Positions 9,791 to 56,521 of a stretch of DNA of 58,945 nucleotides are shown here, one piece after another (within the stretch, counting starts at the first letter, position 1; each line of letters starts with the position of its first letter). Location of the stretch: assembly GCA_964016885.1 (NCBI GenBank), contig CAXHJY010000933.1, positions 1 to 58,945 on the forward strand, written 5' to 3'. The DNA is from Eledone cirrhosa (lineage: Eukaryota). The notes under the pieces are model-generated. The model was not told where the DNA came from. It saw nothing but the letters and a program-made list of their open reading frames with translations, and ran no database searches. The position numbers were made by a program, and so were the translations under genes.

Positions 9791-9796
9791 TCAATA

Positions 9797-11260
9797 CATC
9801 ATCATCATCATCGTTTAACATCTATCTTCCACGCTAGCATGGGTTAGAGATGTTTGTCCCATTTAGAGACAAGTTGGCTTGGGTGACCGTGTCTCACTCA
9901 TATAGGGCTGTTTCTGGCTGCTTTTCTATGGCTGAATGCCCTTCCTAATGCCAACCACATTTACAGTGTGTGCTGGGTGCTTTTGTTGTGCCTTTACGCG
10001 ACCACTTTACAGTGTGGGCTGGATGTTTTGTGGTACCAACATAACATACACATATATATTTGTGTGTATATACATATATCATCATCACCTCGGCCTTACG
10101 TCCATTTTCCATGCTAGCATGGGTGAGACAGGTTGTCCTGTTGTGGGCAATGTTAGGTCAGGTGACCATGTCTTGCTCATATAGGACTGATTCTGACTTG
10201 GTTTCTACAGCTGGATGCTCTTCTTACTGCCAACCCCATTTACAGTGAGTACTGGGTGCTTTTTGTTGTGACACCTACACAACCACTTTACAGTGGGCTG
10301 GGCACTTTTTGCCATGTCACCATCACGACCATTTTACAGTGTTGGCTGGGGGCTTCACTGGATGCATTTACTTTGGCCTGTTCTCATGGGGGGGTGTGGG
10401 AGGGGGGGTTGGAGTATACTGTGTATATGCTTTGGCTTGTGCTTGTAGGAAGTCAAGTCTTCTGTATTACAGCATATCGCCAGAGATCTCGGTTATGTGC
10501 CGTCGCCTTTGAGAGGTGCAATTGGGCATGGTCAGCTTTTATCACCTCATCCCAAGTTTTCCTTTGTCCGCCCACTCCAAGGAGTCCATCGACTTTGAGT
10601 GCTCTGCACTTTTTTATGCAGCTGTCATCCTTCATACGCATCATATATCCATACCAACGCAATCTCCTCTCCTGCACACAGCATTTGATTCCTTTTATGC
10701 GTAGTTTCTCTCTCAGTTCATTTATGCTTCGCCGTTCTCGTATGTTACTATTACACATCCATCGGAGCATGCAAACTTCATTTCTTTCCAATCTACGTAA
10801 GTCTTCTGCACACAGTGCCCAGGTCTCACTGCCATGCAACATAGCTGTTCGTATGCACGCATCATACAGTCTGCCTTTCATTCTGAGGGAGAAGCCTTTT
10901 GTAGCTCCCTGAACTTCCTCCATCCCGTTCTTACTCTGGCTACAGTTCTTTCAGAACACCCACCTCCGCTGCTAATTCGTTCACATAAGTAGCAGAAAGA
11001 AGCTGTCTACTGTTTTTACAGAGCCCTTACAGAATTTGGTAGCGCTTGTTTCCTGCAGTCGTTTGCTGCTTACTGTTCCAGTGCAACTGCTACATATGAA
11101 GCCTACATTCTTAGCTAAACTTCCTGAGATCCCACTACATCTCTTGTGTACCCATAGTTTGCATATGGGGCAGAGGATGCAGTTTTTACCTACATCTTTC
11201 CAACATACTGAACAAGGCCATTTTTCCGAGGGGATCTGGGTTCTGTTTACTCTTCTTCAA
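9797..11260 (-). mobile_element. Two stacked RTE 3' fragments (9797-10042 and 10078-11260)
   Basis: Two (CAT)n tails; ORF 10453-10923 (KGRLYDACIRTAMLHGSETW); finger remnant near 11085-11230. Confidence 0.85.
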
Positions 11261-12559: not shown

Positions 12560-13330
12560 TGACTACAGCAGCTCCCTTCCATTTGGAACTTCTTCAACCA
12601 ACGATCACCATCCATATGCATCACTTGTCCATACCAGTACAGTCTTCTCTCATACACACTATATTTGATTCTTCTTATACCTAGTTTCTATCAGCTCAAC
12701 CATGTTTCACCATTCATGCACATTAATATCGTCCATCCATCAGAGCATACTCGCTTAATTTCTCTCCAGGTTTTGCATAAAATCTCCATTTACTACCCAT
12801 ATTTCAGTCTCATGCAATATCACACTTCACACACAGCCATTATACAGCTGGCCTTTTAATCATATGGAGAAACCTTTTGTTGTCAACAAATGTAATAGCT
12901 CCTTGAACTTTTTCCAGTTTGTTCTTATTCTAGTTACTATACTTTCAGAGCAATCTCCTCCACTGCTAATTCAGTTACCTAGGCAACAGAACTATCAACT
13001 ACTTCTATGTAGAAAGTTTATTACACTGGGGCTCTTACTACTAACTACCTCTGTGCATCTCCTTCATACAAAAACTACCTTTTCTGTTAGTCTGCCTACA
13101 ATACTACTACACCTTTTGTGTACCCATACTCTCCCTAGTGTATATCATGTAGAGTCCCTACCTACTCTTTTCCTAAATATTGAGCATGGCTACTTCTGTG
13201 ATGGGACCAGTGTCCTGTCTTCTTTTCTACTTACTTTGGTCTTTGCTAAATTTACTCTGCACCCTTTTGATTCTGTTTCAACAGTAGAAATTTCTTCTGA
13301 AGTTCTTCCACAGAGTCAGCAATAAGAACC
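12560..13330 (-). mobile_element. Older degenerate RTE RT fragment
   Basis: ERRLYWYGQVMHMD plus recognisable homology to the finger region. Confidence 0.7.
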
Positions 13331-15730: not shown

Positions 15731-17557
15731 ATCATCATCATCATCATTTTACGTCCGCTTTTCCCTGCTTGCAAGGGTGGGACGGGTCTTATTCAGCACA
15801 GCATCTCTCCACTCGTCGCGGTCCCTCGTCATCTCCACCGTGAGCTTCAATGATCTGAGCTCTGTTCTCACCACCTCCGCCCATGTTTTTCGTGGTCTAC
15901 TTCTACCACGTGTTCCTTCAACTGGCAATTCCTGGCACTTCTTCACCCATCGGTTATCCTCCATGCGCATCACATGTCCATACCACCTCAGTCTCCTCTC
16001 CCGTACACTACATTCTATCCCTCTCAGACACAGTTTCTCTCTCAACACATTTATGCTGGGTCGTTCACGCACATTTACACTGCACATCCAACGGAGCATG
16101 CTTGCCTCATTTCTCTCCAGCCGTCGCATATCCTCTGCAGTTGCTGCCCATGTCTCACTACCATGCAGCATCGCGCTCCTCACACAGGCATCATACAACC
16201 GGCCTTTCGTACGCAGGGAGAAACCCTTCTTCGTCAACAGAGGAAGCAGCTCCCTAAACTTCTTCCACCCCGTCCTTATTCTAGATACTATGGCCTCGGA
16301 ACACCCTCCTTCCATGCTAATCTGATCTCCTAGGTACCGGAAGCTATCCACCACTTCTATAGCGCCCTCTTGCATTTGAAAAATGTGTCTATCAGTGCGA
16401 CTTCTACTGTCTAATTTCCCTGTACATCTACGGCATACATATTTCTCCCTACCTGTTAGTTTGCCTGCTATCCCGCTACATCTCTTGTGTACCCAGGATC
16501 TGCATTGTGTGCATTTTATAGAATTTATGCCAGTTCCTTTTCTGCATATCGAACATGGCCATTTCCCTGACGGAATCAGGGTTTTGTCCTCTTTTCTACT
16601 CATCAACACTTTTGTCTTAGCTAGATTCACTCTCAGTCCTCTTGCTTCCAACTGCTGTTTCCATAGCCAGAATTTATTCTCTAGCTCCTCTACTGATTCT
16701 GCTATAAGAACCAGATCGTCAGCATAGAGAAGTTCCCATGGACAGCCAGTCTTAAACTCCTCTGTTATGGCTTGGAGGACTATAATGAACAAGAGCGGGC
16801 TGAGGACCGAACCCTGATGTACTCCTACTTGTATCTGGAATTCCTCACTAAACTCCATTCCCACCCTGACTTTACTGAGAGTACCTCTGTACAAAGTTTG
16901 CACTGTCCTCACAAGCCATTCTTCAACACCTAGCTTCCTTAGGGACCACCAGATGACAGATCGGGGTACCCTATCAAAGGCCTTCTCTAGGTCAACAAAG
17001 GCTAAGTATAGTGGCTTATTCTTCTCTAAGAACCTCTCTTGCATTTGTCTCACCAAGAAGAGGGCATCTGTTGTACTCTTCCCAGGCACAAAACCAAACT
17101 GCATCTCATCTAGTTTGACCCTTTCTCTAATTAGTTGTGCTAAAATCCTTTCTGCCACTTTCATAACCTGATCTATCAGTTTTATACCCCTATAATTGCT
17201 CCTCTCCAAAGCATCCCCTTTACCTTTGTAGCAATTTATGAGAATACTGCTGCACCAGTCTTTGGGTATGACACCACCATATATAGCCTGATTGATGATG
17301 CGTGCAACCAGTTTAGTGCCTACGTCCCCTGATGCCTTCAGCATCTCAGCAACTATTCCCGATGGTCCGGCCGCCTTACCATTTTTCATTTCCCAAATCG
17401 CCTCTTGGACCCTATATTCGTCAATCTCAATAGCTGGTCCCTCTGTCGGATTTACCAAGGGTAATTTCTCTCTCTCCCATTCGTTCTCCACATTCATCAG
17501 TCTCTCATAATGACATTTCCAGGCCTCCTTTTTCTGATCATTCGCATCATCCCGGAC
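15731..17557 (-). mobile_element. 5'-truncated RTE LINE (family B) with uninterrupted 582-aa RT ORF (15749-17497)
   Basis: YADD RT and embedded finger; the ORF runs up to the (GAT)n tail. Candidate TSD ACAGAT at 15727-15732 and 17558-17563. Confidence 0.92.
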
Positions 17558-17719
17558 ACAGATATACTATATAAAGACTGAAGGATAAAGAGAGAGAGAT
17601 GAGAAATATATTCTGCTAAATATATGCCATTAAATAATGCAGAAATATCATTCAACTTAATTTTCTAAATATTATTTTCAATAAAAATAAATAAATGAAA
17701 TAAACTACATTTGATGTAC

Positions 17720-25631: not shown

Positions 25632-25865
25632 TGTAAAAGATAAACAGAAATAACAACTCAAATGGTACAGTTTATGGAAGGAATATATTAATTTAACACT
25701 TGAAATAGCAGGACGAGGGTCTTAACGTTTCAGACGCTAGACCTTCATCAGAAGAAATTAGAAAGATTGAAGGGACGGGCAGGGCAGAATCAGAAAAAAT
25801 GTTTTTAGAGAAAGATAGTAGGTCCATTCAAGTTGCCATCTCTTGGAAAACTTGTTGCTAGTGAT
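25632..25865 (-). repeat. PLE pLTR-like repeat, copy 2 (hammerhead stem II degraded, 25720-25755)
   Basis: Shares TTTAACACTTGAAATAGCAGGA...GTCTTAACGTTTC...CCTTCATCAGAAGAAA...GTTGCCATCTCTTGGAAAAC with copy 1. Confidence 0.65.
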
Positions 25866-26119
25866 AAAAAACGGGAGGTTATATCCAAATTTGGTAGAAC
25901 ACTCAGTCCTTGTTATCAAACTATCGACATATTCTGTGCAGAGTCCAGTCTGCTCATATATACTTCCGTTCTCACTGCAACCATACATGGGTTGAAAGTC
26001 CCTCTGATGAAACGTGTCCTCAAATATGGTTTGTTAATTTGTTGTGAAGCTATCTCTATCTATCTTTCTCTATATGTGTGTGTGTGTATATATATATATA
26101 TAGAGAGAGAGAGAATAAA

Positions 26120-26395
26120 ACATGTCTTCATACCAGAAACAGTAAGCTTCTACCATCTCATCGAAACACATAAAACAGGACTGTACTTAAAAGTTAGACC
26201 TATCATTTCTGGCATAAACTGTCCTTTCTATAAAATCTCCTGGCTTCTTTCCAGATTTCCCAAACCTTTTCTTCACACTTTCCCCAGACTCATAGAAAAC
26301 TCACAAGTATTAGTCAACAGACTAAAAGAACTTAACTCCACACTTGGACTGAATAGATACCCTTTTAGTTTAGGCGTAGTTTCCCCTCTATACCA
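26120..26395 (+). mobile_element. Penelope-like element reverse transcriptase fragment
   Basis: FYHLIETHK...VRPIISGINCPFYKISWLL...LIENSQVLVNRL...FSLGVVS.LY matches the PLE RT pattern FY.LPK.HK...RPIIS...P...S..L...IKNS...SLDV.SLY. Confidence 0.75.
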
Positions 26396-26399
26396 GGTT

Positions 26400-27280
26400 C
26401 TGCTTCAGTTGTTAATACTGCGGGCGAAAGAGGCTTGGTGAGGCACCAGATGGCAGGAAGACTTCTTGGTTCAATCAAGAAGTCAAAGATGCCATCCAAA
26501 GAAGGAGGCTTACAGAGCTTGGCTTGGAAATAAGTCCTTCTTCTTGCGCTTGCGGTATAGGCAGTCATGAAGAATTGCAGCAAAGACAGTAAAGGCGTCC
26601 AAAGTTAAAACATGGGAGAACTTTGGGGTTAAGCTAGAATCTGACTTCAGATCAGCAAATAAAGTGTTCTGGCAGACCATCTGCCGACTTGCTATCAAGA
26701 ATGTGTCTGGAGTTCTCCTCTCTCAAGAGAGGTGCATCCACGCGAAGTGGAGACAATACTTTGCTGATGTCCTAAACCCGATCACAACAGCATTTTCGGA
26801 TATACATGAGGTGTATCTAGGAGCAGTGACTAATCTATCAAAGGCTGAGGTTACAAGAGCAGTTAAAGAGATCAAATGTGGCAAGATGTTAAAAGTCTTA
26901 ACCCTTTAGCATTTAAACCAGCCGTATCCGGCCAGAATTCTCTCACCTCTTTCTGTTCAAACTGGCTGTAACTAGCCACTCATACTAATGTAAGGTATTG
27001 TTCTCAAAATATATAATATCAAAATCTCATAAATTCAATATTATGTGAGATAAAGCTTTTACCGTGAAAATACAATAGTATATATTGGGTAATGCAAATG
27101 CTAAAGGGTTAAATAGAGAAGGTATTCTCTGGCTGACTCATTTGTGCTGGGTGGCCTGGATCTCTGGAAATGCACCTAAGCAATGGCAATCGGGAGTTAT
27201 AATCCTAATTTTCAAATAGGGACACTAGAGAGATTGTTCCATAAAGGGACCGCCTTATTAAGCCTCCTTGGTGAAGTCTA
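26400..27280 (+). mobile_element. Old RTE-like LINE remnant split by a TTAA MITE
   Basis: KWRQYFADVLNP...EVTRAVKEIKCGK; MLKVLN|REGILWLT is restored when the MITE is removed. Confidence 0.7.
26902..27108. mobile_element. piggyBac-like MITE with TTAA TSD
   Basis: TTAA|CCCTTTAGCATTT ... AAATGCTAAAGGG|TTAA; relatives near 52970-53163, 53816-53960 and 54931-55147. Confidence 0.85.
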
Positions 27281-28048: not shown

Positions 28049-31000
28049 ATCATCATCATCGTTTAACGTCCATCTTCCATGCTAGCATGGGTTTGGATAG
28101 GAATTTTCCCACTTGAGGCAAGATTGGTTGTCTTGCTTGCATAGGACTCTGTTTTTTACGGCTGGATGCCCTTCCTAACACCAACCACATTTACAGTGTG
28201 GACTGGGAGGTTTTTACCGTGTTACCTACACGGCCACATTACAGCGTGGACTGTGTGTTTTTTTGTCGTGACACCTACACGCCCTCATTTGTTTCGGACT
28301 GGATGCTGTGGTACCAACATAACTTTACATTGGAAGGGGTGGTGTGGATGGGGTGGGAGTAGTGGGGCCGGGGTGTATTTTTGTTAGAGGTGCCTACTGA
28401 CTGTAGGTTTTGCTTTGTACTTAGGCAAGGCGGGTCTTCTGTATGACTGTGTATCGCCAAAGATCTCGGTCCAGTGACATTGTCTTGGAGAGGTGTAAGT
28501 GTGTGAGGTCGGAATTTAGCAAGTCGTCCCAGGTTTTTCTGGGTCTGCCTACTCAGTGGCTACCGTCTATTTTTATCGCCCTGCACTTTTTTATACAGCT
28601 GTCGTCTTTCATGCGCATCACGTGACTGTACCAACGTAGTCTTCTCTCGAGTAAACAGCATCTGGTCCCTCTTATTCCTAATTTCTCCCTTAGTTCGTTT
28701 ATGCTTTGCCGTTCACGTATATTACTATTACACATCCAGCAGAGCATGCATGCTTCGTTCCTCTCCAGTCTGCCTATACAATGCCCAGGTCTCACTGCCA
28801 TGCAACATTGCTGTTCGTATGCAGGCATCATACAGCCTGCCTTTCATTTTTAGTGAGAACCCTTTAGCGGCCAATAGTGGTATAAGCTCTCTGAACTTTT
28901 CCATCCCGTTCTGACTCTAGCTACTGTACTTTCGGAGCACCCTCCACCACTGCTGATTTTGTCGCCCAGGTAACGGAAGGTGTCCACTATTTCTATAGAA
29001 CCATCTGTGCAATGGAATGAGCTAGTATTCTGTGGGCACTTGCTGCTACTTATTGCACCAGAGCACCGGCCACATATAAAATCTATATTCTTAGTTAGCT
29101 TACCTGTGATCCCACTACATCTTTTATGCACCCATACTTTGCATTTGAGACATAAAATGGAGTTTCTGCCTACTCCTTTCCTACACACTGAGCATGGCCA
29201 TTTCCCAGATGGGACTGGTGCCCTATTTTCCTTCCTACAAACTAGAACTTTAGTCTTAGACAGGTTAATTTTAAGGCCTTTTGATTCTAGGCCATGCTTC
29301 CATATTTGGAATTTCTTCTCTAGTTCGGTCATTGATTCAGCTATGAGCGTTAGATCATCTGCGTATAGGAGTTCCCATAGGCAGCCGGTCTTGAACTCCT
29401 CTGTTATAGCCTGAAGGGCAATAATAAATAGGAGGGGGCTAAGGACGGAGCCCTGATGAACACCAACCTTTACGCTAAACTCTTCACTATATTCGTTGTT
29501 AATTCTAACCTTGCTGACTGTTTCTTTATACATGGCTTGTATAGCTCTCACAAGCCATTCACCTAGTTTTCTAAGAGCCCACCAGATAATGGAGCGGGGG
29601 ACTCTGTCAAAGGCTTTCTCCAAGTCAACAAAAGCTAAGTATAGGGGTTTACTTTTAGCTAGGTACTTCTCCTGTAGTTGTCGTACAATGAAAAGAGCGT
29701 CTGTGGTACTTTTACCTGACACAAACCCGAACTGCATTTCATCTAGATCAATTCGCTCTCTGATTAGTTGCGCTATTACTTTTTCTGTGACCTTCATGAC
29801 CTGGTCGATTAATTTAATGCCTCTATAGTTACCCCTATCTAGGGAATCTCCTTTACCCTTGTAGCAGTTAATGATGGTGCTGCTGCGGCAGTCCTTCAGA
29901 ACGACCCCATTCTGTATGACTTGGTTTACTATCCGGGTGACCATAGTGTCCCACCGTTCCAGATGCTTTCAGCATTTCAGCAACTATTTCCGAAGGCCTA
30001 GCCGCCTTACCCGTCTTCATATCTTTGATTGCCTTACTTATTATACCACCAATCTCTGGGAGGGCTCTGTAGAGACAGTAGACAGCTTCTGCTACCTAGA
30101 TGACCGAATTAGCAGCGGAGGTGGGTGTTCAGAAAGTACAATAACTAGGGTAAGAACGGGATGGAAGAAGTTTAGGGAACAACTACCACTGCTAGCTGCA
30201 AAAGGCTTCTCCCTCAAAATGAAAGGCAGACTGTATGATAAGTGTATCCGAACAGCAATGTTACATGGTAGTGAGACCTGGGCGCTGAAGGTGGAAGACT
30301 TACGTAGATTAGAGAGAAACGAAGCCTGCATGCTCCGATGGATGTGTAATAGTAATATACGCGAACGACAAAGCATAAATGAATTGAGAGAGAGACTGAG
30401 CATAAGAGGAATCAAATGCTGTGTGCAGGAGAGGCGGATGCGTTGGTATGGACATGTGATGCGTATGAAGGATGACAGCTGCATAAAAAGGTGCAGACAC
30501 TAGAAGTCGATGGAAACCGCGGAGTGGGGAGACCCAAGATGACCTGGGATGAGGTGATAAAAGCCGACCTTACCCAATTACACCTCTCAAAAGCGATGAC
30601 ACACGACCGTGACCTCTGGCGTCACGCAGTAATACAGAGTACCCGACCTCCCATGGGTACAAGCTGAAGCATATAGACAATATGCCCCCACACCCTCCCA
30701 CTGCAAGGTGGTCGTGGAGGCGCCACGGCATAAAAGCACCCAGCCCACACTGTAAAGTGGACGTGTAGGCGCCACGAAAAAGCACCCAGCACTCACTGTA
30801 AATGAGGTTGGTGTTAGGAAGGGCATCCAGCTGTAGAAATCAAGCCAAATCAGTTCCTGTATGAGCAAGGCATGGTCAGCCGACCAGACACTGCCCACAA
30901 CAGGACAACCCATCTTCAACTAGCACTGCTGGTCCCTCTATTGAATCGATGTGGGGGAGACTGTCTTTCTCCCATTTATTCTCTTCATTTAGTAGCCTTT

Positions 31001-33375: not shown

Positions 33376-34659
33376 CAGGGTGCGGACGATATTTGTTTGC
33401 AAGATTACTTTCTAGGAAAAAATAACACAGTAGTTTTATTTTTTAAGATTTATTTATCAAACTTGGGTCAGTTTGTCTTCATGACTTGTTCTTTCGATCT
33501 CACTCGATAAACCCGCCATTGGCTTTGATGACGGCCTCAAAGCGGCCTCGGAACCGGCTACAGGCCTTCATCACTGTCCCCCAACTTAGGCACTTGTGAT
33601 CCTGGCTTTCAGATCGTCTTTCGTATTGCAGCTAGATCTGTTGGTGTCTCGTTCCACTGCGCCCCACACAAAGAAGTCGAGGGGGTTGCAGTCAGGCGAG
33701 CTGGGAGGCCAGATGTCAGGTGAAATGTGGTCAACGAAGTTCTCTGACAGCCAGGCTTGGGCCTTCAGCTGGTTTGGCAGGGCACTGAGTCTTGCTGCCA
33801 CACGTACAGCCTACCTGCAGCTATCTAGTCGATCCAGGGCTTTACTACCTCGCTCAGAATGCGGATGTAGCCATCGGTGTTCAGCTTGAGGCCCTCAGGG
33901 AAGAAGTGAGGTGGCATCACGTCACCTTGACTGCTGACGACACCTAAGACCAATGTTGTCACTGGAAACTTTGTCTGCATGACTCTGGGCATGTCTTTGG
34001 ATGAGACTGCGAGCCACCTGTGGTTCTGGGAGTTGATCTTCTGGTTTTGGCAGAAGTTTTTCTCATCGGAGAAAAACCACAGCATGTCTGGCTCCAGTGG
34101 ATGTTTCAACTTGTTGATCAGCTTCTTTGCGTGCTTCAGTCGCTTTTCTTGCATCGCCTTTGACAGAAATTGTCCTTTCCTCATCTTGTATGAAACGTAG
34201 CGAATGTCTTCATGTACCACCAGCCTAATGAGCTTTTCATCCACGCCTTTCTCCCTTGCAATTGCACGCATCGACTTGCTAGGTTCATTGTTGATGATAT
34301 CCTGAACTTCAGTGATGAACTCGGGCATTCTGAAGGCGTCAGATTGTCGATCATGTGTTTTCCTCTCTGATGTTGCTTCGTAGTCGAATCCTGTATCTTC
34401 CAAATCCTTTCTGACCTTTTCCACCATTCTCCTGCTGACGCTGAGAAAGTCTGAAATTTCCTTATTTGTCCTCCCAGCGCGGATTCCAAGAAGAACTCCA
34501 TGTATCGTCCACAAATTTGTAGGTTCAAAATTATTCATAATCAATTATTCTGAAAATAAATAATGGAAATATAGTCACTGTTTTTATGAAGACAAGAGTG
34601 ACAACGGAAGTAATAAAATTAGCAGTTGAAAATTGCGAACAAATATCGTCCACACCCTG
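33376..34659 (-). mobile_element. Tc1/mariner DD37D (maT) transposon, full length 1284 bp
   Basis: 27-bp TIRs CAGGGTGYGGACGATATTTGTTYGCAA (2 mismatches), TA on both flanks. Confidence 0.92.
33500..34538 (-). pseudogene. DD37D transposase pseudogene
   Basis: FFSDEKNF, WQQDS, WPPSSPDCNPLD (37 residues between the last two catalytic Asp after frame repair); ends EAVIKANGGFIE*. Stop at 33825 and frameshifts downstream. Confidence 0.9.
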
Positions 34660-37259: not shown

Positions 37260-38330
37260 GTATGCGCGGGGACATAGAAATAATCGGGCTGGATACCCGA
37301 TCACACAATTAAACCACTGGTAGTGAAGGACCCGTAGCCCTTGTCAGGGCATTCTTCTAGGAGAAGGCAACTCAGAAAACTGAGATAACTCCAACATAAA
37401 AACTGCGACTCAGTAGTAACCATTGATGTTGATCTTTTCTTCTTTTCGGGTTATAGCTACTCTCGCTCAGAGAGTGGAATTGGCTAAGTGCACAGTCTTT
37501 CCTCACTTTAAAAAAATCTTCATCCACAGGCATTGCACGATAGCATTAATTGATCTGCAAGACTTTCTGAATGTACTGGCCAAACATTTGCTGGAGGCTG
37601 GCTTACACATCAACATCATCATCATCGTTTAACGTCCATCTTCCACGCTAGCATGGATTAGACAACATCTCCAAAACAAAGTGTATGACAACTGATAAAA
37701 ACAATGCCAATCTCCAACTCACAATCTACAACCAGCAAATCGCTCGAGTTACGGGGCTTGTATATCTCGGCCACAAACTATCATCAAACACTAATGGAAT
37801 GGCTACTGTGCAGTATCGCATCGCTCTAGGTTGGGCAGCTTTCAACAAGAACAAGGAAGTACTAACATCAAAACGAGTTTCCTATCATTTGAAGGCTAAG
37901 ATATTTGATACTTATATCCTACCAGTTGTGTTATATGATTTTGACTGTTAATTGGACGACAAGGTCACTTCAGAAGCTCTCTACATTCCAGAACCACATC
38001 ATGAGACTTATGACTGGCAAGTGACTCAACGACCTGCTGAACATTACCAAATTTAGACCAATTATATCAATTGTCAAGTCAAGAGTACTCAAACTATACG
38101 GTCATATAAAAAGATCAACTCGTGGTGTGAGTAGGTTATGCCTGGAAGGAAGGTTGGCTGGTAAGAGAAGCAGAAGTCGACAGCCAAAATGATGGTTTGA
38201 TAATGTCAACTTATGGACTGGACTTGATCTTTGCACTTTAAACTCTGCTGCTGGTGATCGAACTTTGTGGCGAAAAATATCTTATGTTGATGCACAGTCT
38301 GCAACTGGTGGAGTTTAGCGTCACAAGAAG
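37260..38330 (+). mobile_element. Internally deleted old RTE-like LINE
   Basis: GLHINISKTKCM, LVYLGH, RIALGWAAF, KIFDTYILPVVLY, LKLYGHIKR; CTAGGAGAAGGCAACTC resembles RTE 5' UTR sequence. Confidence 0.7.
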
Positions 38331-38397: not shown

Positions 38398-41300
38398 TCA
38401 TATATATATATATATTTATTAATTTCAAGAACGCCCGTATTCCGTGTGTCATAATTCTCGATTATCATTGGTTCATAGGTTTCAAACGACTCCGCCCACC
38501 TCAACGACGCCAAACTGAAATTAATATGCATAATGCCAATGAGGGAGTGAGAGGGGAGAGTGTGAACGGTGTGTTCAATAACTATTAACATGTGTGTATG
38601 TACGTGCAAGTATGTTTATGTGTGTGTGCATGCATGCAGCGTTCCACGGAAAGTAAAAACTATCAACATGTGTGCGTGTTTAAGTTTGTGTGTGTGGCGT
38701 TCCACAATCGCCACCCAGTTTATCTGTCTGTCAGTCTAATATACACAGAGTTGTGAAGGGAGTAAATGGGGACCTTTCTTTATATTGACGGACATCTTTT
38801 ATATTTATTATTGTGTCATTTTTTGACAATTGCTCGAAATGAATACTGATAATAAAAGCAATTCGACTTTATCAAACAGTGAACTACAGCGGCGACGGCG
38901 TGCAGCCAGCAATGAAGAAAAACGGGCCGAACTTCAAAGGCGAAGATGTGCCGCCATGAATGAAGAGGAGCTGGCTGAACCAAGCCAACGAAACACTGGA
39001 GCCAAGCAGCAACAGCGTGCTGCGATGGTTGAAGACGAACTAGATGAGCATCATCAGCAGATGGCCATAATTCAGCAGCAATGGCGTGCTGCTATGGATG
39101 AAGAGGAGCTGGCTGAACAGCGCCAGCGCAATACAGAAGTTCAGAGAATGTGTCGCCAAAGTGCTCCTCATTCCAGTAAAGAGGCTAGAAGGCGAACAAA
39201 TGATATTAAAAATGGATCATGGCAACCGTGTCATTTTCAGATTGGTGGACAAGCAGAGTGTCCACATTGTGGAGCATTGCTTTGGAGGCACGAAAAGATG
39301 TGGACCACAATGTGCTGCCATAAAGGAGCAGTTCAACTAGAACCCTTGCGAATGCCGGATGATGAGGAGTCACCGGAGTTTAAAATACTAAGTATGTGGG
39401 GTGATCAAGGAGACCGAGGTAGATTACTGCGCAAATATTCGCGGCAAATTAACAATTCATTAGCTTTAGCATCGCAGAGAGTTAGTGAGATGTTTGAGAG
39501 TGGAACATGGCAACCGAATGTAGTCATTCAAGGCCGTTTGTTTCATTGTATCGGTAATTTAGACGTTACCCCAGGAGATAGGCCTCGATTCGCTCAAATT
39601 TTCGTTAACGATCCAGATTATAGTGAATCGGGGGAGGATATCAGGATTGGTTGGATGAAGTTGCCGGGAAATATAACTGAACTTGAACAGTAAAGGTTAA
39701 GTGATTTGATCCGTGATTTGCAATCATGGCTTAGACAGTGTAATCCTTATGTTATGGATTTCATGTTGGTGGCTGAACTGCAAAATGTTGAGCAGCAAAC
39801 ATTGGTGATTAAGGCTGACGCAGTGCCAAGGAATCAACACGAACGGCAATATAATGCCCTTGAAGGATTTCGTGAAGTTGCTGTGCTGATGGACGATAAG
39901 CCTGGATCGAGAGATATCGTCCTCAATCGCAGAGATGGTGGTCTCAAGACTATCAATGAGTCAAATAGGGCATACGATCCATTGCATTATGTTCTTTTAT
40001 TCCCAAAAGATGAAAATGGATGGAACATGTCTGTTCATTTAGATGATCATGAGAATCAGCATCAACAGGGAGGTGGCAATAGACACAATAATTCGATTTG
40101 CGACTTTTACGAGAGGAATCAACAGAGAAATGCGTTATTTCAAGCCAGCAGATTGTTCCAGGAATACTGTTGTATGGCATTCGCAAAGATCGAAAATCAA
40201 AGGCTAAATTATATAGCTACACATCAGCAACATATCAGAGCTGAATTGTATAATAATATACAGGATGTGATAACAGCCGATGATGCCAATTACAAGCAAA
40301 TTGGTCGACGCATCATTTTGCCATCGTCGTTCATCGGCGGCCCGAGATATATGAACATTCGCTATCAGGATGCAATGGCTATTGCCAGAAAGTTTGGAAA
40401 GCCAGATTTGTTTATAATGGTTACATGCAATCCTGAATGGACTGATATTAAGGATGCACTTTTGCCAGGACAACAGCCAAAGGACCGTCCTGATATTGTG
40501 GCAAGAGTATTCAAAGGATATCTGAAAAAGATAATGGATGATGTGGAAAAAGAGGGAATCTTTGGAGGTATAGTTGCTTTTACATACGTAATTGAATTCC
40601 AAAAAAGAGGATTACCACATGCACATTTGCTGATCATTTTACATTGAGATGTGCTGAGGATGTCGACAGCATTGTGTGTGCTAAACTGCCGGAGAATGAG
40701 GCACTACGCAACTTGGTGGCAAAGTCAATGGTGCACAACCAATGCGGAGTGGCAAATCGGAAAGCGCCTTGCATGAAAAAAGGCCAATGCAGTAAGCACT
40801 TTCCGAAATCTTTTGTCACGAACACTTCCTGGAACGACGCGGATGCTCATCCCTCATACAGAAGACGGTCGCCTGCAGATGGCGGTTTGGTCGAAAATGT
40901 AAATGGTCGACAGGTTACAAATCAATGTTTGATTATGAAATATCGTTGTAATATTAATGTGGAAATTTGTATCTCAGGGAAAGCTTACAAATATCTATTC
41001 AAATATGTTTACAAAGGTCATGATCGGGCAATGATCGATGTCAGGAATGAGGAAGCGAACCAAGGAGATGAAGTTGGCAGGTTCCAGGATGTTCGTTCGA
41101 TTGGATCTAGCGAAGCTTGTTGGAGATTGTTCGATTTTGATCTCAATGAACGCAAACCCAGCGTTCAGAAACTGACGGTTCACTTAGAGAATAGGCAAAT
41201 GGTCTGTTTTCAGGACACTAGAAGAGGTCTCGAAAGAATCGCTAACGCACCACCTCCTAAGACGGAATTGACTGAGTGGTTCAAACATAATAGGGAACAT

Positions 41301-42817
41301 GCTTTGAACCCGGATCAAAGGCAACTCTACTGCGATTTCCCTTCGCACTATACGTGGGATAAGAGGAGAAAGAAGTGGAATGGTAGAAAACAAAAGTTGA
41401 GATTCATGACTATTGGACGGGTTTGTAATGTCCATCCAGCATCTGGTGATGTGTTTTATCTCCGAATTCTATTGCATAATGATTTTTCGAGAGGTAAACA
41501 GCTTCGCTGATTTGAAAACAATCAATGGCGTGGAATATGAAACATACCAGGCTGTGTGTCAGCATCTGGGACTCCTTCAGGATGACGCTGAATGGAATAG
41601 CGCCATGGAAGCTGCAGGAACAACACAGATGCCAGCTCAAATAAGGCAGTTTGTCACGATTCTAGGATTCTGCAATCCTGCCGATCCAAGAGAGTTATTT
41701 GAATGCCATGGCTGATGATTTTAGGCATCATCTTCAAGTCGATGATGAAAATTTGATGAAAGCTATTGTTTTGCTCAATATTGAGCAACTGCTTGAAGTT
41801 CATTTCAAATGTTTAACAGATTTCAATTTGCCAATTCCTGATGAAGAAATGCGGCAACGTGTCTTAGCATTGAACATGAGATTGCAGCTTAGATGGTTGC
41901 CACTCGATCGGAGGGAACTATTCCAGTTTGATCCACTGGAACAGCAACGTATTGTGGATGAACGTATGCCAATGTTGACCCAATCTCAGAGAGAAATGTT
42001 CGATGGCGTTCTCCACTCGATTTCCACTAATGAGCAACTTTGTGCTTTCATAGATGTTCCAGGAGGCACCGGAAAGACATTCTGTTTCAACACTATGTTA
42101 TCGGCAGTCAGAGCTCAGAGGAAGATTGCTCTCCCTGTGGCCACCAGTGGGATCGCTGCCACTTTGCTGAGTGGTGGAAGGACCTTCCACTCATGCTTCA
42201 AGGCTCCATTGGCTCCGGATGAGTTGAGTGTCTGTAACATTACAGGACAAAGTGAACTCGCGGGCCTTATACGCAATACGTCTCTGATTATTTGGGACGA
42301 GGCTCCAATGACACATAGATATTTGCTGGAGGCATTGGACAGAACTTTGAGAGATATCTGCGATAGTGACCTGCCATTCAGTGGTAAGATTATCGTTCTT
42401 GGTTGCGATTTCAGACAGGTGCTACTAATTGTTAGGAATGCTCAAAGAGCGCAAATTGTCGATGCATGTCTGAAAAAGTCCCCGTGGTGGCACCATTTCA
42501 GAGTTTTGCGATTACACGATTGGAACTTCCATCATCCTTTTAAGATACACGTTTTATAGTCAGGCAGAAGATGAACCATCTCCTAGAGGTCACTATTCTA
42601 GGTGGGAGCACCTAGAATTGTACATATACTATGCACAAACGATACAACAAAGAATCTGGTATATCTGGAAGATTTTTTTTTACTGTTTTTTGTACCACAC
42701 AGACACCACAGACTCACCTCATACTGTAACCAGACAAACATCCAATACAGTCATTTTCTCTTTTACCTGTCTTCTCTTATCATCTGTTTACCCGGGCGAA
42801 GCTGGGTACGTCAGCTA

Positions 42818-43002: not shown

Positions 43003-46000
43003 TTTTCTCTATCGTATTTTCTTAAACAAAACAAATCTTGTATTTTCGTTTATTGTTAAATTATGCCCAATTTTTTCTCGATTCTTCTCTCCATTCGAAC
43101 CCATTCATTCAATCACTTCTATGTCCTAATTTCACACTATATCATATTTTCACCATTCTATATCATATCTTTTCTCTAAAAATCATATTTTCCCTATCAC
43201 CGCATTTTCTCTATCGTATTTTCTTAAACAAAACAAATCTTGTATTTTCGTTTATTGTTAAATCATGCCCAAAATACGGCGATCTTATCTTAAACCTTAC
43301 ATTCTCGCTAACAACCCATCATCCCTCCCTCCCGCCCCCACGCACCACCATTATTACGTGGACCAATCATAAGTCAGAGGCCCATACTATCGCTTAACTG
43401 GTTGCTTTTCGATATGATGGATGGACTACGGAATTCTGGAGAGTTGAAGAGAGAAAAATGTGGACGCTCAGCGACAATGCCAAAGATAAAGCCAAATTCA
43501 CCTCGTGGACGAGAATGCAAGCACTCCTCCTTGTTTCGGCCCAGGATGGCTAACATAACCCCATCCCCCCCCGCGCCCCACCGCTCCCACCCTCCAAACG
43601 CAATCCAAAACTTCAGAGTTGGTACCATGAATGTAGGCACCTTAAAGGGTCGCTCTAACGAGGTTGTAGAAATGCTTGAACGTAAGGAGGTCGATGTTTG
43701 TTGTATTCAAGAGACCAGGTGGAGGGGAGGGTCGGCTAGATTCATCGTGGGTAAAGAACGATGCTATAAGCTTTTCTGGGTGGGAAATGACAATGGGTTG
43801 GGTGGGGTAGGAATCATGGTAGCAGAAAAGTGGGCAGATAAGATAATAGACGTAAATAGAGTGAACGACAGAATAATTAAAATAAGACTTGTCCTCAATA
43901 AAACTACGGTGACAGTAATATCTGCGTACGCACCCCAATCCGGACTGCCCCGCGCTATAAAAGACAGATTCTACGAGACACTGATGCTCGCTACCTCCCA
44001 AATAACCGACAGTGACTATATAGTTATTGCAGGCGACCTAAATGGTCACGTTGGACAACATTGTGACGGCTATGACGGAATCCATGGAGGCTATGGGTTC
44101 GGTACTAGAAATGAGGAAGGCTCCAGAATCCTGGAATTCTGCGACGCAAATAACTTAACTATCTGTAACACTAACTTCAAAAAACGAGACAATCACTTGA
44201 TCACCTATAGATCGGGGGAACACACAAGCCAGGTAGATTATATCCTTACCAGAAGACGTGACAGAGTGTCTGTTGTTAACACTAAATCCCACCCCCATGA
44301 AGAATTCACCTCCCAACATAGACTGATAATTAGCGACCTCATAGTCAGGACGAGACGTACTAGACAGCGGAAGAGGACTATCCTCAGGAGAAAAATATGG
44401 AAGCTAAAGGACCCCATAGCCAGAAATAAATTTCAAAGCAAATTACTTGACGCTTTCGACAGTAAGGAAGAGCAATTAGAGTCGTATAATATAGAGGAAC
44501 AGTGGGAATTCCTGAGAGCAAACCTGCTGACGGCGGCAGACGAAGTCTGTGGCTGGAGCAGGCCTGTAGGTAGGAGGAGAGTAACATGGTGGTGGAACAG
44601 TAAGGTGGAGGAGTCAATTAAGGCCAAAAAGCAGGCTTGGAAAGTATGGCGGGATGGGGGAAGTAGAGAAGACTATCAAGTGGCCAGGAGGGAAGCTAGG
44701 AGACAAGTGTACTTCGCAAGAAGGGAAGCAGAGGAAAGAAAGTTCAAGCATGTTCTACAACGTGAGGACCAAAAACGTGAGGTGTTCAGGATTGCCAGGC
44801 AATGTGTCAAGGAAAACCGTGATATTGTCGGGGAGAAGTGTGTACTTAACGATGATGGCATACTTGCCATCACCGACGCTGATAAGAAGGTAGCTTGGAA
44901 GTGTCACTACGAAAGGCTTCTAAATGAGGAGAACAAATGGGAGAAAGACAGTCTCCCCCAGATCGATCCAATAGAGGGACCAGCAGTGTTAGTTGAAGGT
45001 AGTATAATAAGTAAGGCAATCAAAGATATGAAGACGGGTAAGGCGACTGGGCCTTCGGAAATAGTTGCTGAGATGCTGAAGGCATCTGGTTCGGTGGGAC
45101 ACACCATGGTCACCCGGATAGTTAACCAAGTCGTACAGAATGGGGTTGTTCCGAAGGAATGGCGTAGCAGCATCATCGTTAACTGCTATAAGGGAAAAGG
45201 AGATGCCCTAGATAGGAGTAACTATAGAGGCATTAAATTAATCGACCAGGTCATGAAGGTCACGGAAAAAGTAATAGCGCAACTAATCAGAGAGAGAATT
45301 GATCTAGATGAAATGCAGTTCGGGTTTGTGTCAGGCAAAAGTACCACAGACGCTCTTTTCATTGTACGACAACTACAGGAGAAGTACCTAGCTAAAAGTA
45401 AACCCCTATACTTAGCTTTTGTCGACTTGGAGAAAGCCTTCGACAGAGTCCCCCGTTCCATTATCTGGTGGTCTCTTAGAAAACTAGGTGTTGACGAATG
45501 GCTTGTGAGAGCTATACAAGCCATGTATAAAGAAACAGTCAGTAAGGTTAGAATTAACAACGAATATAGTGAAGAGTTTAGCGTAAAAGTTGGTGTCCAT
45601 CAGGGCTCTGTACTTAGCCCCCTACTATTTATTATTGCCCTTCAGGCTATAACAGAGGAGTTCAAGACCGGCTGCCCATGGGAACTCCTATACGCAGATG
45701 ATCTAACGCTCATAGCTGAATCAATGACCGAACTAGAGAAGAAATTCCAAACGTGGAAGCACGGCCTAGAATCAAAAGGCCTTAAAATTAACCTGGCTAA
45801 GACTAAAGTTCTAGTTTGTAGGAAAGAAAATAAGGCGGCGGTCCCATCGGGGAAATGGCCATGCTCAGTGTGTAGGAAAGGCGTAGGTAGAAACTCCATT
45901 TTATGTCCCAAATGCAAAGTATGGGTGCATAAAAGATGTAGTGGGATCACAGGTAAGCTAACTAAGAACATAGATTTTACATGTGGCCGGTGCTCTGGTG

Positions 46001-47027
46001 CAATAAGTAGCAGCAAGTGCCCACAAAATACTAGCTCCTTCAACTGCGCAGAGGGTTCTATAGAAATAGTGGACAGCTTCCGTTATCTGGGTGACAAAAT
46101 CAGCAGTGGGGGAGGGTGCTCTGAAAGTACAGTAGCTAGAGTCAGAACTGGATGGAAAAAGTTCAGAGAGCTTATACCACTATTAGCCGCTAGAGGGTTC
46201 TCCCTAAAAATGAAAGGCAGGTTATACGATGCCTGCATACGAACAGCAATGCTGCATGGCAGTGAGACCTGGGCATTGTGTGCAGAGGATATACGCAGAC
46301 TAGAGAGGAACGAAGCTTGCATGCTCCGCTGGATGTGCAATAGTAATATACGTGAACGGCAAAGCATAAACGAACTAAGGAAAAAATTAGAAATAAGAGG
46401 GATCAGATGTTGTTTACTCGAGAGAAGGCTACGTTGGTACGGTCACGTGATGCGCATGAAAGACGACAGCTGTATAACAAAGTGCAGGGCAATAAAGATA
46501 GACGGTAGCCACGGAGTAGGCAGACCCAGAAAAACATGGGACGAGCTGATAAATTCCGACCTCACACGCTTGCACCTCTCCAAGACCTTTGGCGGTACTC
46601 AGTAATAGAGAAGACCCGCCTTACCTAAATACAAAGTAAAAACCTACTACAGTCAGTAGGCATCTCTATCAAAACACACCCCCGTCCCACCACCTCCACC
46701 CCACCCACACCGCCCCTTTCAATGTAAAGTTATGTTGGTCCCACAACATCCAGGCCGAAACAAATGAGATCGTGTAGGTGTCACGACAAAAAACACACAG
46801 TCCACGCTGTAAATGTGGCCGTATAGGCAACACGGTAAAAACCTCCCAGCCCCACACTATAAATGTGGTTGGTGTTAGGAAGGGCATCCAACTGTAGAAA
46901 ACTCGCCAGACAGTCCTATGCGAGCAAGACAACCACTCTTGCCTCAAGTGGGAAAACCCCCGTCCAAACCCATGCAAGCGTGGAACACGGACGCTAAACC
47001 TGATGATGATGATGATGATGATGATGA
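43003..47027 (+). mobile_element. Full-length RTE-clade non-LTR retrotransposon (family A), inserted in (TA)n-rich DNA
   Basis: About 400-bp 5' UTR, a single APE-RT ORF, about 400-bp 3' UTR and a (GAT)n tail at 47001-47027. Both flanks are TA/TG microsatellite. Confidence 0.93.
43402..46605 (+). CDS. RTE ORF: apurinic-like endonuclease + reverse transcriptase with embedded C4HC3 finger (first ATG 43414)
   Basis: APE motifs GTMNV, IQETRW, SAYAP, AGDLNGHVG, QVDYIL, SQHR. RT motifs NYRGIKL, QFGF, FVDLEKAFD, GVHQGSVLSP, LLYADD, FRYLG. RTE C-terminus ERRLRWYGHVMRM...GRPRKTW. The last codons are frameshifted. Confidence 0.95.
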   Translation: MLFDMMDGLRNSGELKREKCGRSATMPKIKPNSPRGRECKHSSLFRPRMANITPSPPAPHRSHPPNAIQNFRVGTMNVGTLKGRSNEVVEMLERKEVDVCCIQETRWRGGSARFIVGKERCYKLFWVGNDNGLGGVGIMVAEKWADKIIDVNRVNDRIIKIRLVLNKTTVTVISAYAPQSGLPRAIKDRFYETLMLATSQITDSDYIVIAGDLNGHVGQHCDGYDGIHGGYGFGTRNEEGSRILEFCDANNLTICNTNFKKRDNHLITYRSGEHTSQVDYILTRRRDRVSVVNTKSHPHEEFTSQHRLIISDLIVRTRRTRQRKRTILRRKIWKLKDPIARNKFQSKLLDAFDSKEEQLESYNIEEQWEFLRANLLTAADEVCGWSRPVGRRRVTWWWNSKVEESIKAKKQAWKVWRDGGSREDYQVARREARRQVYFARREAEERKFKHVLQREDQKREVFRIARQCVKENRDIVGEKCVLNDDGILAITDADKKVAWKCHYERLLNEENKWEKDSLPQIDPIEGPAVLVEGSIISKAIKDMKTGKATGPSEIVAEMLKASGSVGHTMVTRIVNQVVQNGVVPKEWRSSIIVNCYKGKGDALDRSNYRGIKLIDQVMKVTEKVIAQLIRERIDLDEMQFGFVSGKSTTDALFIVRQLQEKYLAKSKPLYLAFVDLEKAFDRVPRSIIWWSLRKLGVDEWLVRAIQAMYKETVSKVRINNEYSEEFSVKVGVHQGSVLSPLLFIIALQAITEEFKTGCPWELLYADDLTLIAESMTELEKKFQTWKHGLESKGLKINLAKTKVLVCRKENKAAVPSGKWPCSVCRKGVGRNSILCPKCKVWVHKRCSGITGKLTKNIDFTCGRCSGAISSSKCPQNTSSFNCAEGSIEIVDSFRYLGDKISSGGGCSESTVARVRTGWKKFRELIPLLAARGFSLKMKGRLYDACIRTAMLHGSETWALCAEDIRRLERNEACMLRWMCNSNIRERQSINELRKKLEIRGIRCCLLERRLRWYGHVMRMKDDSCITKCRAIKIDGSHGVGRPRKTWDELINSDLTRLHLSKTFGGTQ

Positions 47028-47059
47028 TATATATGTATGTGTGTATATATATGTATGTG

Positions 47060-47779: not shown

Positions 47780-49235
47780 GGGACCAGGTCATGAAAGTCA
47801 CAGAAAGAATTATAGCAAAGATGATTAGTGACCGGATTAATCTAGATGAGATGCAGTTCGGATTTGTGCCAAGTAAAAGTACCACAGATGCTCTCTTTCT
47901 TGTGAAGTAGCAACAGGAGAAGTACCTACCTAAAAGTAAGCCGCTCTAACTGGCGTTTGTTGATCTTGAGAAAGTTTTTGACAGAGTCCCCCCATGCTAT
48001 TATCCAGTGGACACTTAGAGAAAGAGTAAAAGAGAGGCTTGTGAAGGCGATACGAGCCATGTATAGGGGAGCGGTCAGCAAAGTTAGGATTAACAATGAC
48101 TATAGTGTGGAATTTAGCATGCAGGTTGTCGTCCACCAACGCTCTGCCATTAGCCCTCTCCTGTTTATTATCATTCTGCAAGCTATAACAGAGGTGTTTA
48201 AGACTAACTGCCCATTGGAATTCCGGTATGCAGATGATCTTACACTCTAGTTGAATCTATAGCAGAATTACAGAAGAAATTTCAAACCTGGAAGCATGAC
48301 CTAGAAACAAAAGGTCTTAAAGTCAACCTTACAAAGACTAAGGTCCTAGTAAGTAGAAAGGAAAAAATTCGAAATCCCCTCAATTGCTCAGTATGTAGGA
48401 AATGTGTAGGTAGAAATTCCATCCACTGTTCCAAATGCAAACTATGGGTACACAAGAACATAGGTCTTTCATGTAGCTATTGCAGTGGAGCAGTAAGTAG
48501 CAAACAACCACAGGAAACAAGCACTATCAAATTCTGGGAAGGTTCGGTAGAAGCGGTAGACAGCTTCTGCTACCTAGGTGACCAAAGTAGCAGCAGAGGT
48601 AGGTATTCTGAAAGTACAGTAGCCAGAGTGAAAATGGGATGGAAGTTCAGGGAGTTGCTACCACTGTTAGCTGCAAAAGGCTTTTCCCTCAAAATGAAAG
48701 ACAGATTGTACGACGCATGTATACAAACAGCAGTATTGCAGTGGGGCCTGGGCACTGTGTGTGCAGAGGACTTACTAAGATTGGAAAGAAATTAAGCTTG
48801 CCTGCTTCAATGGATGTGTAATAATAATATCTGTGAACGGCAAAGGATAAACGAACTGAGAGAGAAACTAGGCATAAGAGGAATCAGATGCAGTGTGCGG
48901 GGGAGGAGATTGTGTTGGTATGGATATGTGATGAATATGAAGGATGACAGGTGTATAAAAAAAATGCAGAGCACTCAAAGTTGATGGAAGCGATGGAATA
49001 GAAAGGCCCGGGAAGCCTTGAGGTGATAAAAGCTGTGCTTGCACAATTGCACCACTCAAAGGCCAGCCCACACTGTAAATGTAGTTAGCGTTAGGAAGGG
49101 CATTCAGATGTAGAAACCAAACCAAAATCAGTTCTGTATAAGCAAGACCTGGTCACCTGACCTTGGTTTCCCTCAAATAGAACATCCCATCTAACCCATG
49201 CTAGCATGGGTTAGATGATGTTGATGATAATGATA
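47780..49235 (+). mobile_element. Degenerate 5'-truncated RTE
   Basis: DQVMKVTERII...EMQFGFVP and RYADDLTL with many stops; (GAT)n tail. Confidence 0.85.
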
Positions 49236-50205: not shown

Positions 50206-51430
50206 CATCATCCCTGCACATCACATGCTCATACCATGCAGTCTTCTCTCCTGCACACAACCTCGGATTCATTCCTCTTAAACCCAGCTTCTCTCTCAAC
50301 TCATCCAATGAAGCATGGTTACTTTGTTTCTCTCTTGCTCTCTTTGTTCTCATTTGTTGTCAACAGTGGGAATAGCTCTCTAAACTTTTTCCATCCTATC
50401 CTTATTCTAGCTATTATGCTTTCAGAGCACACTCCTCTGTGGTTAATTAAGTCACCTAGATAGCAGAAGCTAACGACCATTTCTATGGACCCTTCCTTTG
50501 ATTGGAAAAGGTTTATATCATTGGTACTCTTCCTCTTGATTACTCCCGTGCATCTTCTTCATGCAAAGTTCTCTCTTCCTGTTAGTCTAATTGTTATCCC
50601 ATTACCTCTTTTGTGTGCCCAAGATTTACATTGTGTACATCATATGGAGTTTATGCCTACTCCTTTTCTACATATAGAGCAGCCACTTCCCTGAAGGAAT
50701 CAGTGTCCTATCTTCTTTCCTACTCACCAGCACTTTAGTTTTTGCTAAGTTTACTCTCAGATCTTTTTGATTCCAAATTCTATTTCTGTCATCAGAACTT
50801 GTTTTCTAGTTCTTTTATGGATTCAGCTATAAGGACCGAATTATCTGCATAGAGATGTTCCCATGGACAGGCAGTTTTAATCTCCTCTGTTTTGGCCTGG
50901 CGAACTATGATGAACAGCAGTGGGCTAAGAACAAACTTTAATGAACTTGAATTTTTCACTAAACACACTTCTTACTTTCACTTTACTGACATCTCTTCCG
51001 TACATAGCTTGCACTGCTCTTACACGCCATTCTTCTACCCCTAATTGTGAAAGGCCTTTTCTAGGTCAACAAAAGCTAAATATAGCGGCTTATTCTTGGC
51101 TAAGAACTTCTAGTAGTTGCCCCACTAAAAAGAAGGCATCTGAAGTATTTTTCCAAGGCATGAAACCAAATTGCATGTCATCTAATTTGACTCTTTCTCT
51201 AATTAGCAGTGCTATAACTCTTTCTGTCACTTTCCTAACTTGGTCCATTAGTTTTATTCCTCTGTAGTTGATCCTTTCTAAATCATCATCTTTGCCCTTC
51301 AATTTCTGATTGTACTGCTGCACCAGTCATTGGGTGTGACTCTGTCCTGTATTACCTGACTGACTATGTGGGGTACTAGTTCAACTCTTACTTCTCCAAA
51401 TGCTTTTAGTATCTCCTACAGTCCAACAGC
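50205..51430 (-). mobile_element. Degenerate RTE RT fragment
   Basis: NYRGIKLMDQVRKVTERVIA...MQFGF; finger remnant near 50545-50690. Confidence 0.8.
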
Positions 51431-55457: not shown

Positions 55458-56150
55458 ATCATCATCATCATCATCATCATCATTTTACGTCCGCTTTTCC
55501 CTGCTTGCAAGGGTGGGACGGGTCTTATTCAGCATCTCTCCACTTCTCACTGTCGTTCGTCATCTCCTCCATGAACTTCAGCAATTTGAGGTCTGCTCTC
55601 ACCACCTCCACCCATGTTTTTTGTGGTCTTCCTTCTACTGGGATTTCTTGGCACTTCTTTACCCAGCAGTCATCCTCCATGCGTATCAAATGTCGATACC
55701 ATCACAGTCTTCTCTCTCGCACACTACAACTTATCCTTCTTATTCACAGTTTCTCTCCCAACTCTTCTATGCTTGGTCGTTGACGCACATTGACATTACA
55801 CATCCAACAAAGCATGCTTGCTTCATTTCTCTCCAGCCGTCGTATATCCTCTGCAGTTGCTGCCCATGTCTCACTACCATGCAGCATCGTGCATCTCACA
55901 CAGGCATCATATAACCGGCCTTTTCTACACAGGGAGAAACCCTTCTTTGTCAACAGAGGAAGCAGCTCCCTAAACTTCTTCCAACCCATCCTTATTCTAG
56001 ATACTATGGCCTCGGAACACCCCCTCCCATGCCAATCTGATCATCTAGGTACCGGAAGCTATCAACCACTTCTATAGATCCTACCTGCATTTGAAAAATG
56101 TGTCTATCACTGCGACTTCTACTGTCAAATTTCCCTGTACATCTACTGCA
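55458..56150 (-). mobile_element. 5'-truncated RTE family B copy
   Basis: Terminus identical to the 15731 copy; GWKKFRELLPLLTKKGFSL. Confidence 0.88.
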
Positions 56151-56521
56151 TGTATAAAGTGTGAGATGAATCCTAAATGCAAAATAACTGTAACAACAGT
56201 CGAGTGCTATAAATACTAGCTTTGAAAATCTGGTAAAGTACTTCTAGAGATGGGAAAATCTGGCCAGTAGCATCATTGAATCAAACTCCATATCTCTGGA
56301 ATACTGTGAAAGTTCGTTAATCTTTACTCTAAGGGACAACTGACCACCTATTGCATCTATTTTAAAGTACTATACTAAATAGCTTGCAGCTAGAGCTAGA
56401 AGTAAATACACTTTATGAATTAACGAAATACCAGAACTTATTTTACCTGATTTTCTAAGCAATCAACTGTTCTTACAGTTATTTTCTGCATTTGGGATTC
56501 CCACATTTACAAATCTATCAA

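Follow-up and report, generated by a model that had tools for sequence, protein, structure and literature searches.

A LINE in the genome of Eledone cirrhosa carries a cysteine- and histidine-rich segment in the middle of its reverse transcriptase (RT), which raises the question of what this segment is and what it may do inside a polymerase. The window analyzed in our study is the whole stretch of 58,945 nucleotides in which this element lies. The initial annotation described a C4HC3 finger just after the catalytic YADD, within the RT. Translation, Pfam searches and the position between RT motifs 6 and 7 bore this out, and the region 45862-45993 (+), residues 851-894 of the open reading frame of the element (family A), encodes a true PHD finger with the ligand pattern C-x2-C-x10-C-x2-C-x4-H-x2-C-x14-C-x2-C. 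The PHD profile PF00628 matched with 26.7 bits within the whole family A frame (cut-off 24) and with 31.4 bits in a 100-residue cut-out around the finger. C1_1, C1_2, Prok-RING_1 and zf-RING_16 all stayed below their own cut-offs on the same frame and FYVE was absent from its Pfam matches at E<=1, so that the suggested comparison with PHD and RING profiles came out in favor of PHD. The finger is bracketed by motif 6 (residues 823-832, 45778-45807), which aligns with the motif 6 region of L1 and R2, and motif 7 (YLG, residues 923-927, 46078-46092). It starts 57 residues past the YADD (residue 794, 45691-45702), which is invariant in 122/122 rows of our protein alignment. Including the linkers on both sides, the insert comprises about 90 residues (45808-46077, +); PHD-less relatives have 25-30 residues there.

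The finger is part of a single open frame of 1097 residues from stop to stop (43312-46605, +) that encodes an AP-endonuclease (EN), the PHD-containing RT and a thumb. The EN domain (residues 105-328, 43624-44295) was recognized by Pfam (PF03372) and by its fold match to the L1 EN, and Pfam placed the RT domain at residues 635-835; beside EN and RT, no C-terminal finger was reported by Pfam in this frame. The match to a second element copy starts near 43255, and the 3' UTR of about 400 nt is followed by a (GAT)n tail (47001-47028, +) and then by a TA-rich microsatellite. Typical of the RTE clade are one ORF that encodes both AP endonuclease and RT, the absence of an ORF1 and of a C-terminal zinc knuckle, and a short 3' UTR with tandem repeats at its end. 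Family A shows one EN and RT frame, a short 3' UTR and a tandem-repeat tail. We therefore call it an RTE-type LINE, a label based on architecture and the general definition of the clade, the tree described below having been built without named Repbase elements. Near the end of the ORF (46586-46605) the window copy lacks about 19 nt relative to its sister copies, and its last few residues differ.

Family A is young, since the best match to the window copy was 97.8-99.9% identical in 29/30 fetched loci (96.7% in the remaining one). For a 110-residue stretch, 150/150 scored matches were 100% identical; they were drawn from 61,698 first-look candidates, a figure that is not a copy number. Matches span one 443-Mb contig of the 3.0-Gb host genome from 0.06 to 434 Mb and also occur in the first part of a second contig. 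For a divergent relative, family B, the 150 scored matches lie on many contigs with 97-100% identity. The closest named relative of the family A protein is from Octopus bimaculoides. PHD-bearing RTE families and their relatives cover 19,351 of the 58,945 bases (33%) of the window. Evenly placed stretches of large contigs contained 2,168 such bases in 200,000 at a slightly stricter E-value, and the small contig is thus a dense nest. The window also holds a Helitron in several frames (38827-42559, +; Helitron_like_N E 5e-58, PIF1 helicase E 2e-60). Besides, we take a 239-residue frame (33825-34544, -) to resemble a Tc1/mariner transposase, with no Pfam match at E<=0.001, and a 210-residue frame (25809-26441, +), likewise with no Pfam match, is possibly a decayed piece of a Penelope-like RT.

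The finger recurs within the window. Family B had been described as having the same 44-residue spacing, and a 5'-truncated copy with the frame 15749-17566 indeed encodes, by translation and Pfam, a finger of identical spacing at 16424-16555 (-) that scored 26.6 bits to PF00628. All five remnants listed earlier were recovered as well. These are the finger of an older copy of family A at 29063-29206 (-) and a remnant at 11083-11223 (-), both with 8/8 ligands, a decayed remnant at 13055-13189 (-), one with an 11-residue deletion at 48385-48483 (+) and a decayed, family B-like one at 50550-50681 (-). A sixth, partial remnant at 56019-56156 (-) retains only the final CxxC. Two other RT remnants of the window, 9337-9798 and 37667-37936, had been read as old RTEs with a short linker in place of the finger. 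The short linker was found in both, with a motif 6-7 interval of about 25 residues, but the remnants are separate, distant families whose ancestry to the PHD lineage is only putative.

A PHD fold is also predicted by structural modeling. The AlphaFold2 model of a 997-residue protein reached a mean pLDDT of 89.7 and a pTM of 0.85, with 77-88 for the finger and about 61-63 for both linkers. In a structure search the full model matched only L1 ORF2p, R2 proteins and AP endonucleases, and the geometry between finger and DNA lies outside these matches. The model of the isolated finger, a prediction in which zinc was not modeled, had a core pLDDT of 79-88. Its top seven Foldseek rows were all Pygo or TAF3 PHDs (probability 0.99-1.00, TM about 0.6, E 0.03-0.07), led by Pygo 2vpe (probability 1.00, TM 0.59, E 0.03), and no match of the isolated finger reached E<=0.001. 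The AlphaFold check proposed earlier thus pointed to PHD: the finger is predicted to have a cross-brace PHD fold, around which the RT fold would be intact. A search with the family profile placed Pygo first among PHDs; in a single-sequence search the top match was Jade-1, followed by Pygo2. When the finger was co-folded, without an alignment, with zinc and unmodified H3 residues 1-30 from the host genome, the score was 0.03 against a mark of 0.34, a value that speaks neither for nor against binding.

The finger marks a whole lineage of animal RTE-type LINEs and is not a local oddity. A query including the finger found 128 proteins, the best 120 of which were listed, and in the resulting alignment of 122 rows seven ligands were invariant in 122/122 and the eighth in 121. 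As a query of this kind is biased toward the finger, we repeated the search with RT residues 620-832 only. Among the best 120 of the 950 matches, 115 contained all eight ligands (107 canonical, 8 with a longer His-Cys gap) and the remaining five resemble broken copies. The eight members with the longer gap have 3-4 residues between His and Cys6 rather than 2 and retain every ligand. The expectation that similar inserts exist in other invertebrate RTEs was confirmed by members from Octopus bimaculoides and Branchiostoma floridae, and a further named member is from the catfish Neoarius graeffei. A full element is also filed under a bacterial MAG of a bivalve symbiont, where it is probably host DNA contamination. 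Moreover, an RT-PHD without EN lies within a catfish gene model named as an slc22a21 isoform and probably reflects an element that was annotated as part of this gene.

With increasing distance the finger becomes rare. Among 150 representatives at 50% identity that were found with the RT core, 17 had a finger, 78 had a short loop (26 residues in 64 of these) and 55 were unclassifiable. At 45% identity or more, 15 had a finger and two did not, one of the latter being a deletion remnant; below 45%, the numbers were 2 with and 76 without. A quick maximum-likelihood tree of the RT core, with the finger excluded, was computed from 56/105 usable rows, including 20 low-identity short-loop rows drawn at random. 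When it was rooted at the midpoint, a single branch (SH-aLRT 89) had every one of the 34 rows with a finger on the same side. The RT phylogeny called for earlier therefore requires only one gain, and the finger was likely gained once, long ago, which fits the quick tree but is not proved by it. In a metagenome scan motif 6 was readable at 33/79 loci; the first six ligands were matched in 20 of these 33, most of the other 13 were decayed fingers and a short loop was seen in none. Automatic clusters combining PHD and RT are already held by the ESM Atlas. An Atlas search excluding RT clusters gave unnamed PHD clusters without taxa and identified no donor PHD. We infer that the donor may have been among the Pygo-like PHDs of CR1/L2 elements.

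The finger is under purifying selection. Between families A and B the synonymous sites are saturated (pS 0.83-0.90), so that dN/dS was not computable. The pN values were 0.23-0.25 for the finger, 0.13 for the RT core and 0.50 for the second linker. None of the eight ligands is lost between the two families, and 6/8 show a synonymous codon change. Neutral evolution of the Cys and His ligands, named earlier as a ground for refutation, is contradicted by their near-complete invariance, by the low pN at saturated pS and by the conservation across fingers at <=60% identity.

The site of the insert gives a first hint at its function. R2Bm carries an insertion, termed 6a, between its motifs 6 and 7. 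This insertion reads the target DNA on the upstream side and nicking depends on it; according to the authors of that study, R2 is the only non-LTR RT to have it (PMC10499050). The 6a loops of vertebrate R2 elements likewise wedge into target DNA (bioRxiv 10.1101/2024.11.11.623112). R2Bm residue 666 aligns with residue 834 of family A, six residues ahead of the 6a loop (672-677), and the start of our insert therefore coincides with the start of that loop. A 6a insertion has been described for L1 ORF2p, too (PMC10830420). In the passages of the L1 ORF2p literature that were available we found no account of DNA contact by the L1 6a; it is thus by analogy to the R2 loop that we infer a location of the finger near upstream target DNA, facing it.

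A second hint comes from the residues around the ligands. In Pygo1 the cage for H3K4me2 has W366, Y341 and D352 as walls and V350 and A356 as base (PMC2726290). By ligand spacing and an alignment with Pygo2, the residues W849 (45856), V858 (45883), S862 (45895) and W871 (45922) correspond to Pygo1 Y341, V350, A356 and W366 and form a putative methyl-lysine cage (45856-45924, +), next to a conserved N861 (45892). In 65 fingers at <=60% identity, the cage positions held W in 65/65, V in 64/65, S in 63/65 and an aromatic residue (Y/W/F/H) in 63/65. Outside the ligands, W871, V858, S862, P850 and N861 varied least in this set. All four cage residues were retained in 177 of 195 fingers taken from 201 proteins; the aromatic residue at C1-2 was missing in some deep members (13/195). 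The finger thus has the divider Trp at H-2 and the aromatic or hydrophobic cage of H3K4me readers. Readers of unmodified H3K4 of the AIRE and BHC80 type have no cage and carry an acidic cluster ahead of Cys1 (PMC3241642). In our fingers the cage is there, and K/R instead of acids occupies C1-3 in 54/65.

The charge of the finger differs from that of Pygo. Its mean net charge is +6.8, with +4 or higher in 188/195, and K/R is conserved at C2+2 (55/65), H+1 (52/65) and H+2 (60/65) as well as at C1-3. An acid is found in the loop ahead of C7 in 162/195. Pygo D352 has no counterpart, an acid anywhere in the C2-C3 loop being present in only 20/195. Pygo E360 is required for histone binding (PMC2726290), and its position (C3+1) is acidic in 7/195. 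The acidic histone face made up of D352, E360 and an acidic R2 pocket is therefore not found in this lineage. Such residues are described as frequent but not universal among H3K4me readers (PMC3241642). Pygo1 leaves H3R2 exposed and the R2 pocket of RAG2 contains no acid (PMC3241642), so that the missing acidic pocket would be tolerable.

Taken together, the reading that we prefer, at about an even chance, is that the finger acts as a chromatin tether. A PHD finger would have entered the RT palm between motifs 6 and 7 of one RTE-type lineage and would have been kept there by selection. Its small aromatic cage would grip the methylated H3K4 tail while the basic surface of the finger would rest against nucleosomal or target DNA, with an effect on dwell time or on the preference for certain chromatin states while target-primed reverse transcription takes place. 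The target sequence would not be set by the finger, as the (TA)n bias described below arises without it. The tether is favored by the W, V and S cage positions, which rank with P and N as the best-conserved non-ligands, by Pygo as the closest PHD in profile and fold, and by the acid ahead of C7 in most fingers. The initial annotation had proposed a grafted module that reads chromatin or nucleic acid, and this idea gains support from the conserved cage residues and from the site, which is that of the R2 6a loop. Against a tether, however, stands the basic finger, compared with the acidic histone face of Pygo, with D352 and E360 unmatched, and so does the loss of the C1-2 aromatic in some deep members. 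Moreover, the conserved W/V/S/N patch may serve another purpose, either packing against the RT or base stacking, and for APE-type LINEs an R2-like course of the target DNA around motif 6a is no more than putative.

The young copies also give no sign of promoter targeting, being dispersed and adjacent to (TA)n. We scored an alternating A/T run of at least 8 within 20 nt of the start of each distinct flank. Such runs were found in 14/25 3' flanks of family A and 8/17 of family B, compared with a background frequency of 6.3% in 199,600 windows, taken from 20 stretches of 10 kb at even spacing; after an AT the background is 18.1%. The 5' junctions showed the same bias (10/16 and 5/8). A PHD-less family of the same genome, whose copies are older (90-97% alike), had (TA)n at 4 of its 7 tails; of its 5' match ends, several of which are not true junctions, 1/8 had TA. 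We therefore rejected (TA)n targeting driven by the finger, since the bias at the 3' flank is equal in a family that lacks it. Three LINE families with differing tails, (GAT)n and (ACTAAG)n, all adjoin (TA)n microsatellites far above background. The earlier suggestion that the finger steers integration toward a transcribed intron was not upheld: copies are dispersed along the 443-Mb contig, the (TA)n bias is shared with the PHD-less family, and among 101 non-RTE frames of at least 62 residues in the window Pfam found only Helitron domains and no host exon, which leaves the intron unconfirmed (short exons would escape this search).

A nucleic-acid clamp that involves no histone reading is in our view a less likely explanation and the main rival. 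With its conserved Lys/Arg and a stacking Trp, the finger would hold either the upstream target DNA or the RNA of the element itself and thereby improve priming or processivity. The net charge, the four conserved K/R positions, the location at the site of the DNA-reading 6a loop and the absence of the key acids of Pygo all agree with a clamp. The best-conserved non-ligand positions, however, are the small and aromatic ones of the cage rather than the basic ones, and the (TA)n bias is present without the finger (4/7 tails in the PHD-less family vs 14/25 and 8/17). Still less probable is a docking site for a non-histone partner, such as a host cofactor, a silencing factor or another methyl-lysine protein, or a structural lid on the RT. 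The Pygo PHD also binds BCL9 HD1 by its rear face (PMC2726290) and some PHDs bind non-histone proteins (PMC3241642), and the N-S-I patch appears to be conserved beyond what a histone reader would need. On the other hand, no partner is known, and the variable linkers with their lower model confidence suggest a mobile appended domain. A neutral passenger in a tolerant surface loop is hardly credible: sister RTs work without a finger, the loop being short in 78/95 classifiable representatives, but the near-complete invariance of the ligands, the low pN at synonymous saturation and the broken appearance of the five RT-only matches lacking the full ligand set all speak against it.

On a bolder reading, this old and distinct animal lineage might be a LINE analogue of the chromodomain integrases, with a histone-mark reader in the polymerase at the 6a site that would couple H3K4 methylation to target-primed reverse transcription, and motif 6a might be a general socket for targeting modules. 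We put this forward tentatively and regard it as less likely than not. The finger bears on how LINEs that are not site-specific sense chromatin, and the PHDs of LINEs had no functional study as of a 2014 survey (PMC4120745). With a single ORF, copies that are young and nearly identical, and a sister group that lacks the PHD, the lineage offers a direct test system. Should motif 6a accept and use a whole reader domain, it would also suggest itself as the place for fusions when retrotransposons are engineered into tools for gene insertion. Given the abundance of the family in the genome, any chromatin preference would shape cephalopod genome structure.

In the open literature (apart from Repbase, Dfam, subscription journals, supplements and Kapitonov and Jurka 2003) we found no description of a PHD in an RTE element or between motifs 6 and 7. 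The RTE treated in a paper on octopus LINEs is another one, which has a C2H2 finger, and no PHD is mentioned in the text available (PMC9115989). There is a precedent for a PHD within an RT, since Craig et al. reported in 2021 that five families of Chlamys Penelope-like elements carry PHD inserts, either between RT2a and RT3 or inside the EN (PMC8557442). Both cases share a PHD within a retroelement RT and a putative function. However, the Chlamys elements belong to Chlamydomonas and have a GIY-YIG EN, whereas the insert described here lies between motifs 6 and 7 of an APE-type LINE and is fixed in a whole animal lineage.

The PHD domains of CR1/L2 elements are reportedly also treated by Kapitonov and Jurka 2003. 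Metcalfe and Casane described them in 2014 in ORF1 and at the ORF2 N-terminus, proposed a general role in genome targeting, knew of no functional study and regarded the structure of ORF2 as highly constrained (PMC4120745). Several of these domains share the best PDB matches of our finger, Pygo 2vpb and 3zpv, but they are located upstream of the endonuclease and not inside the RT palm, and the descent of our finger from them is a conjecture. The R2 motif 6a loop is likewise an insertion between RT motifs 6 and 7, and that of R2 contacts upstream target DNA. It is, however, a short loop of a site-specific RLE-type element rather than a zinc module of about 90 residues in a dispersed APE-type one. 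The Pygopus PHD is closest by profile and fold, and four of its five K4me cage positions are retained; in contrast, our finger is basic, leaves D352 and E360 unmatched, has a shorter C2-C3 loop and has no known counterpart of the BCL9 partner. The PHD finger of RAG2 has a role in recombination. It resembles our finger by function only, as an H3K4me3 reader with an acid-free R2 pocket that is tied to a DNA-cutting, transposon-derived enzyme (PMC3241642). Unlike our finger, it is part of a separate subunit of a domesticated DDE recombinase, and the homology between the two is that of the PHD fold.
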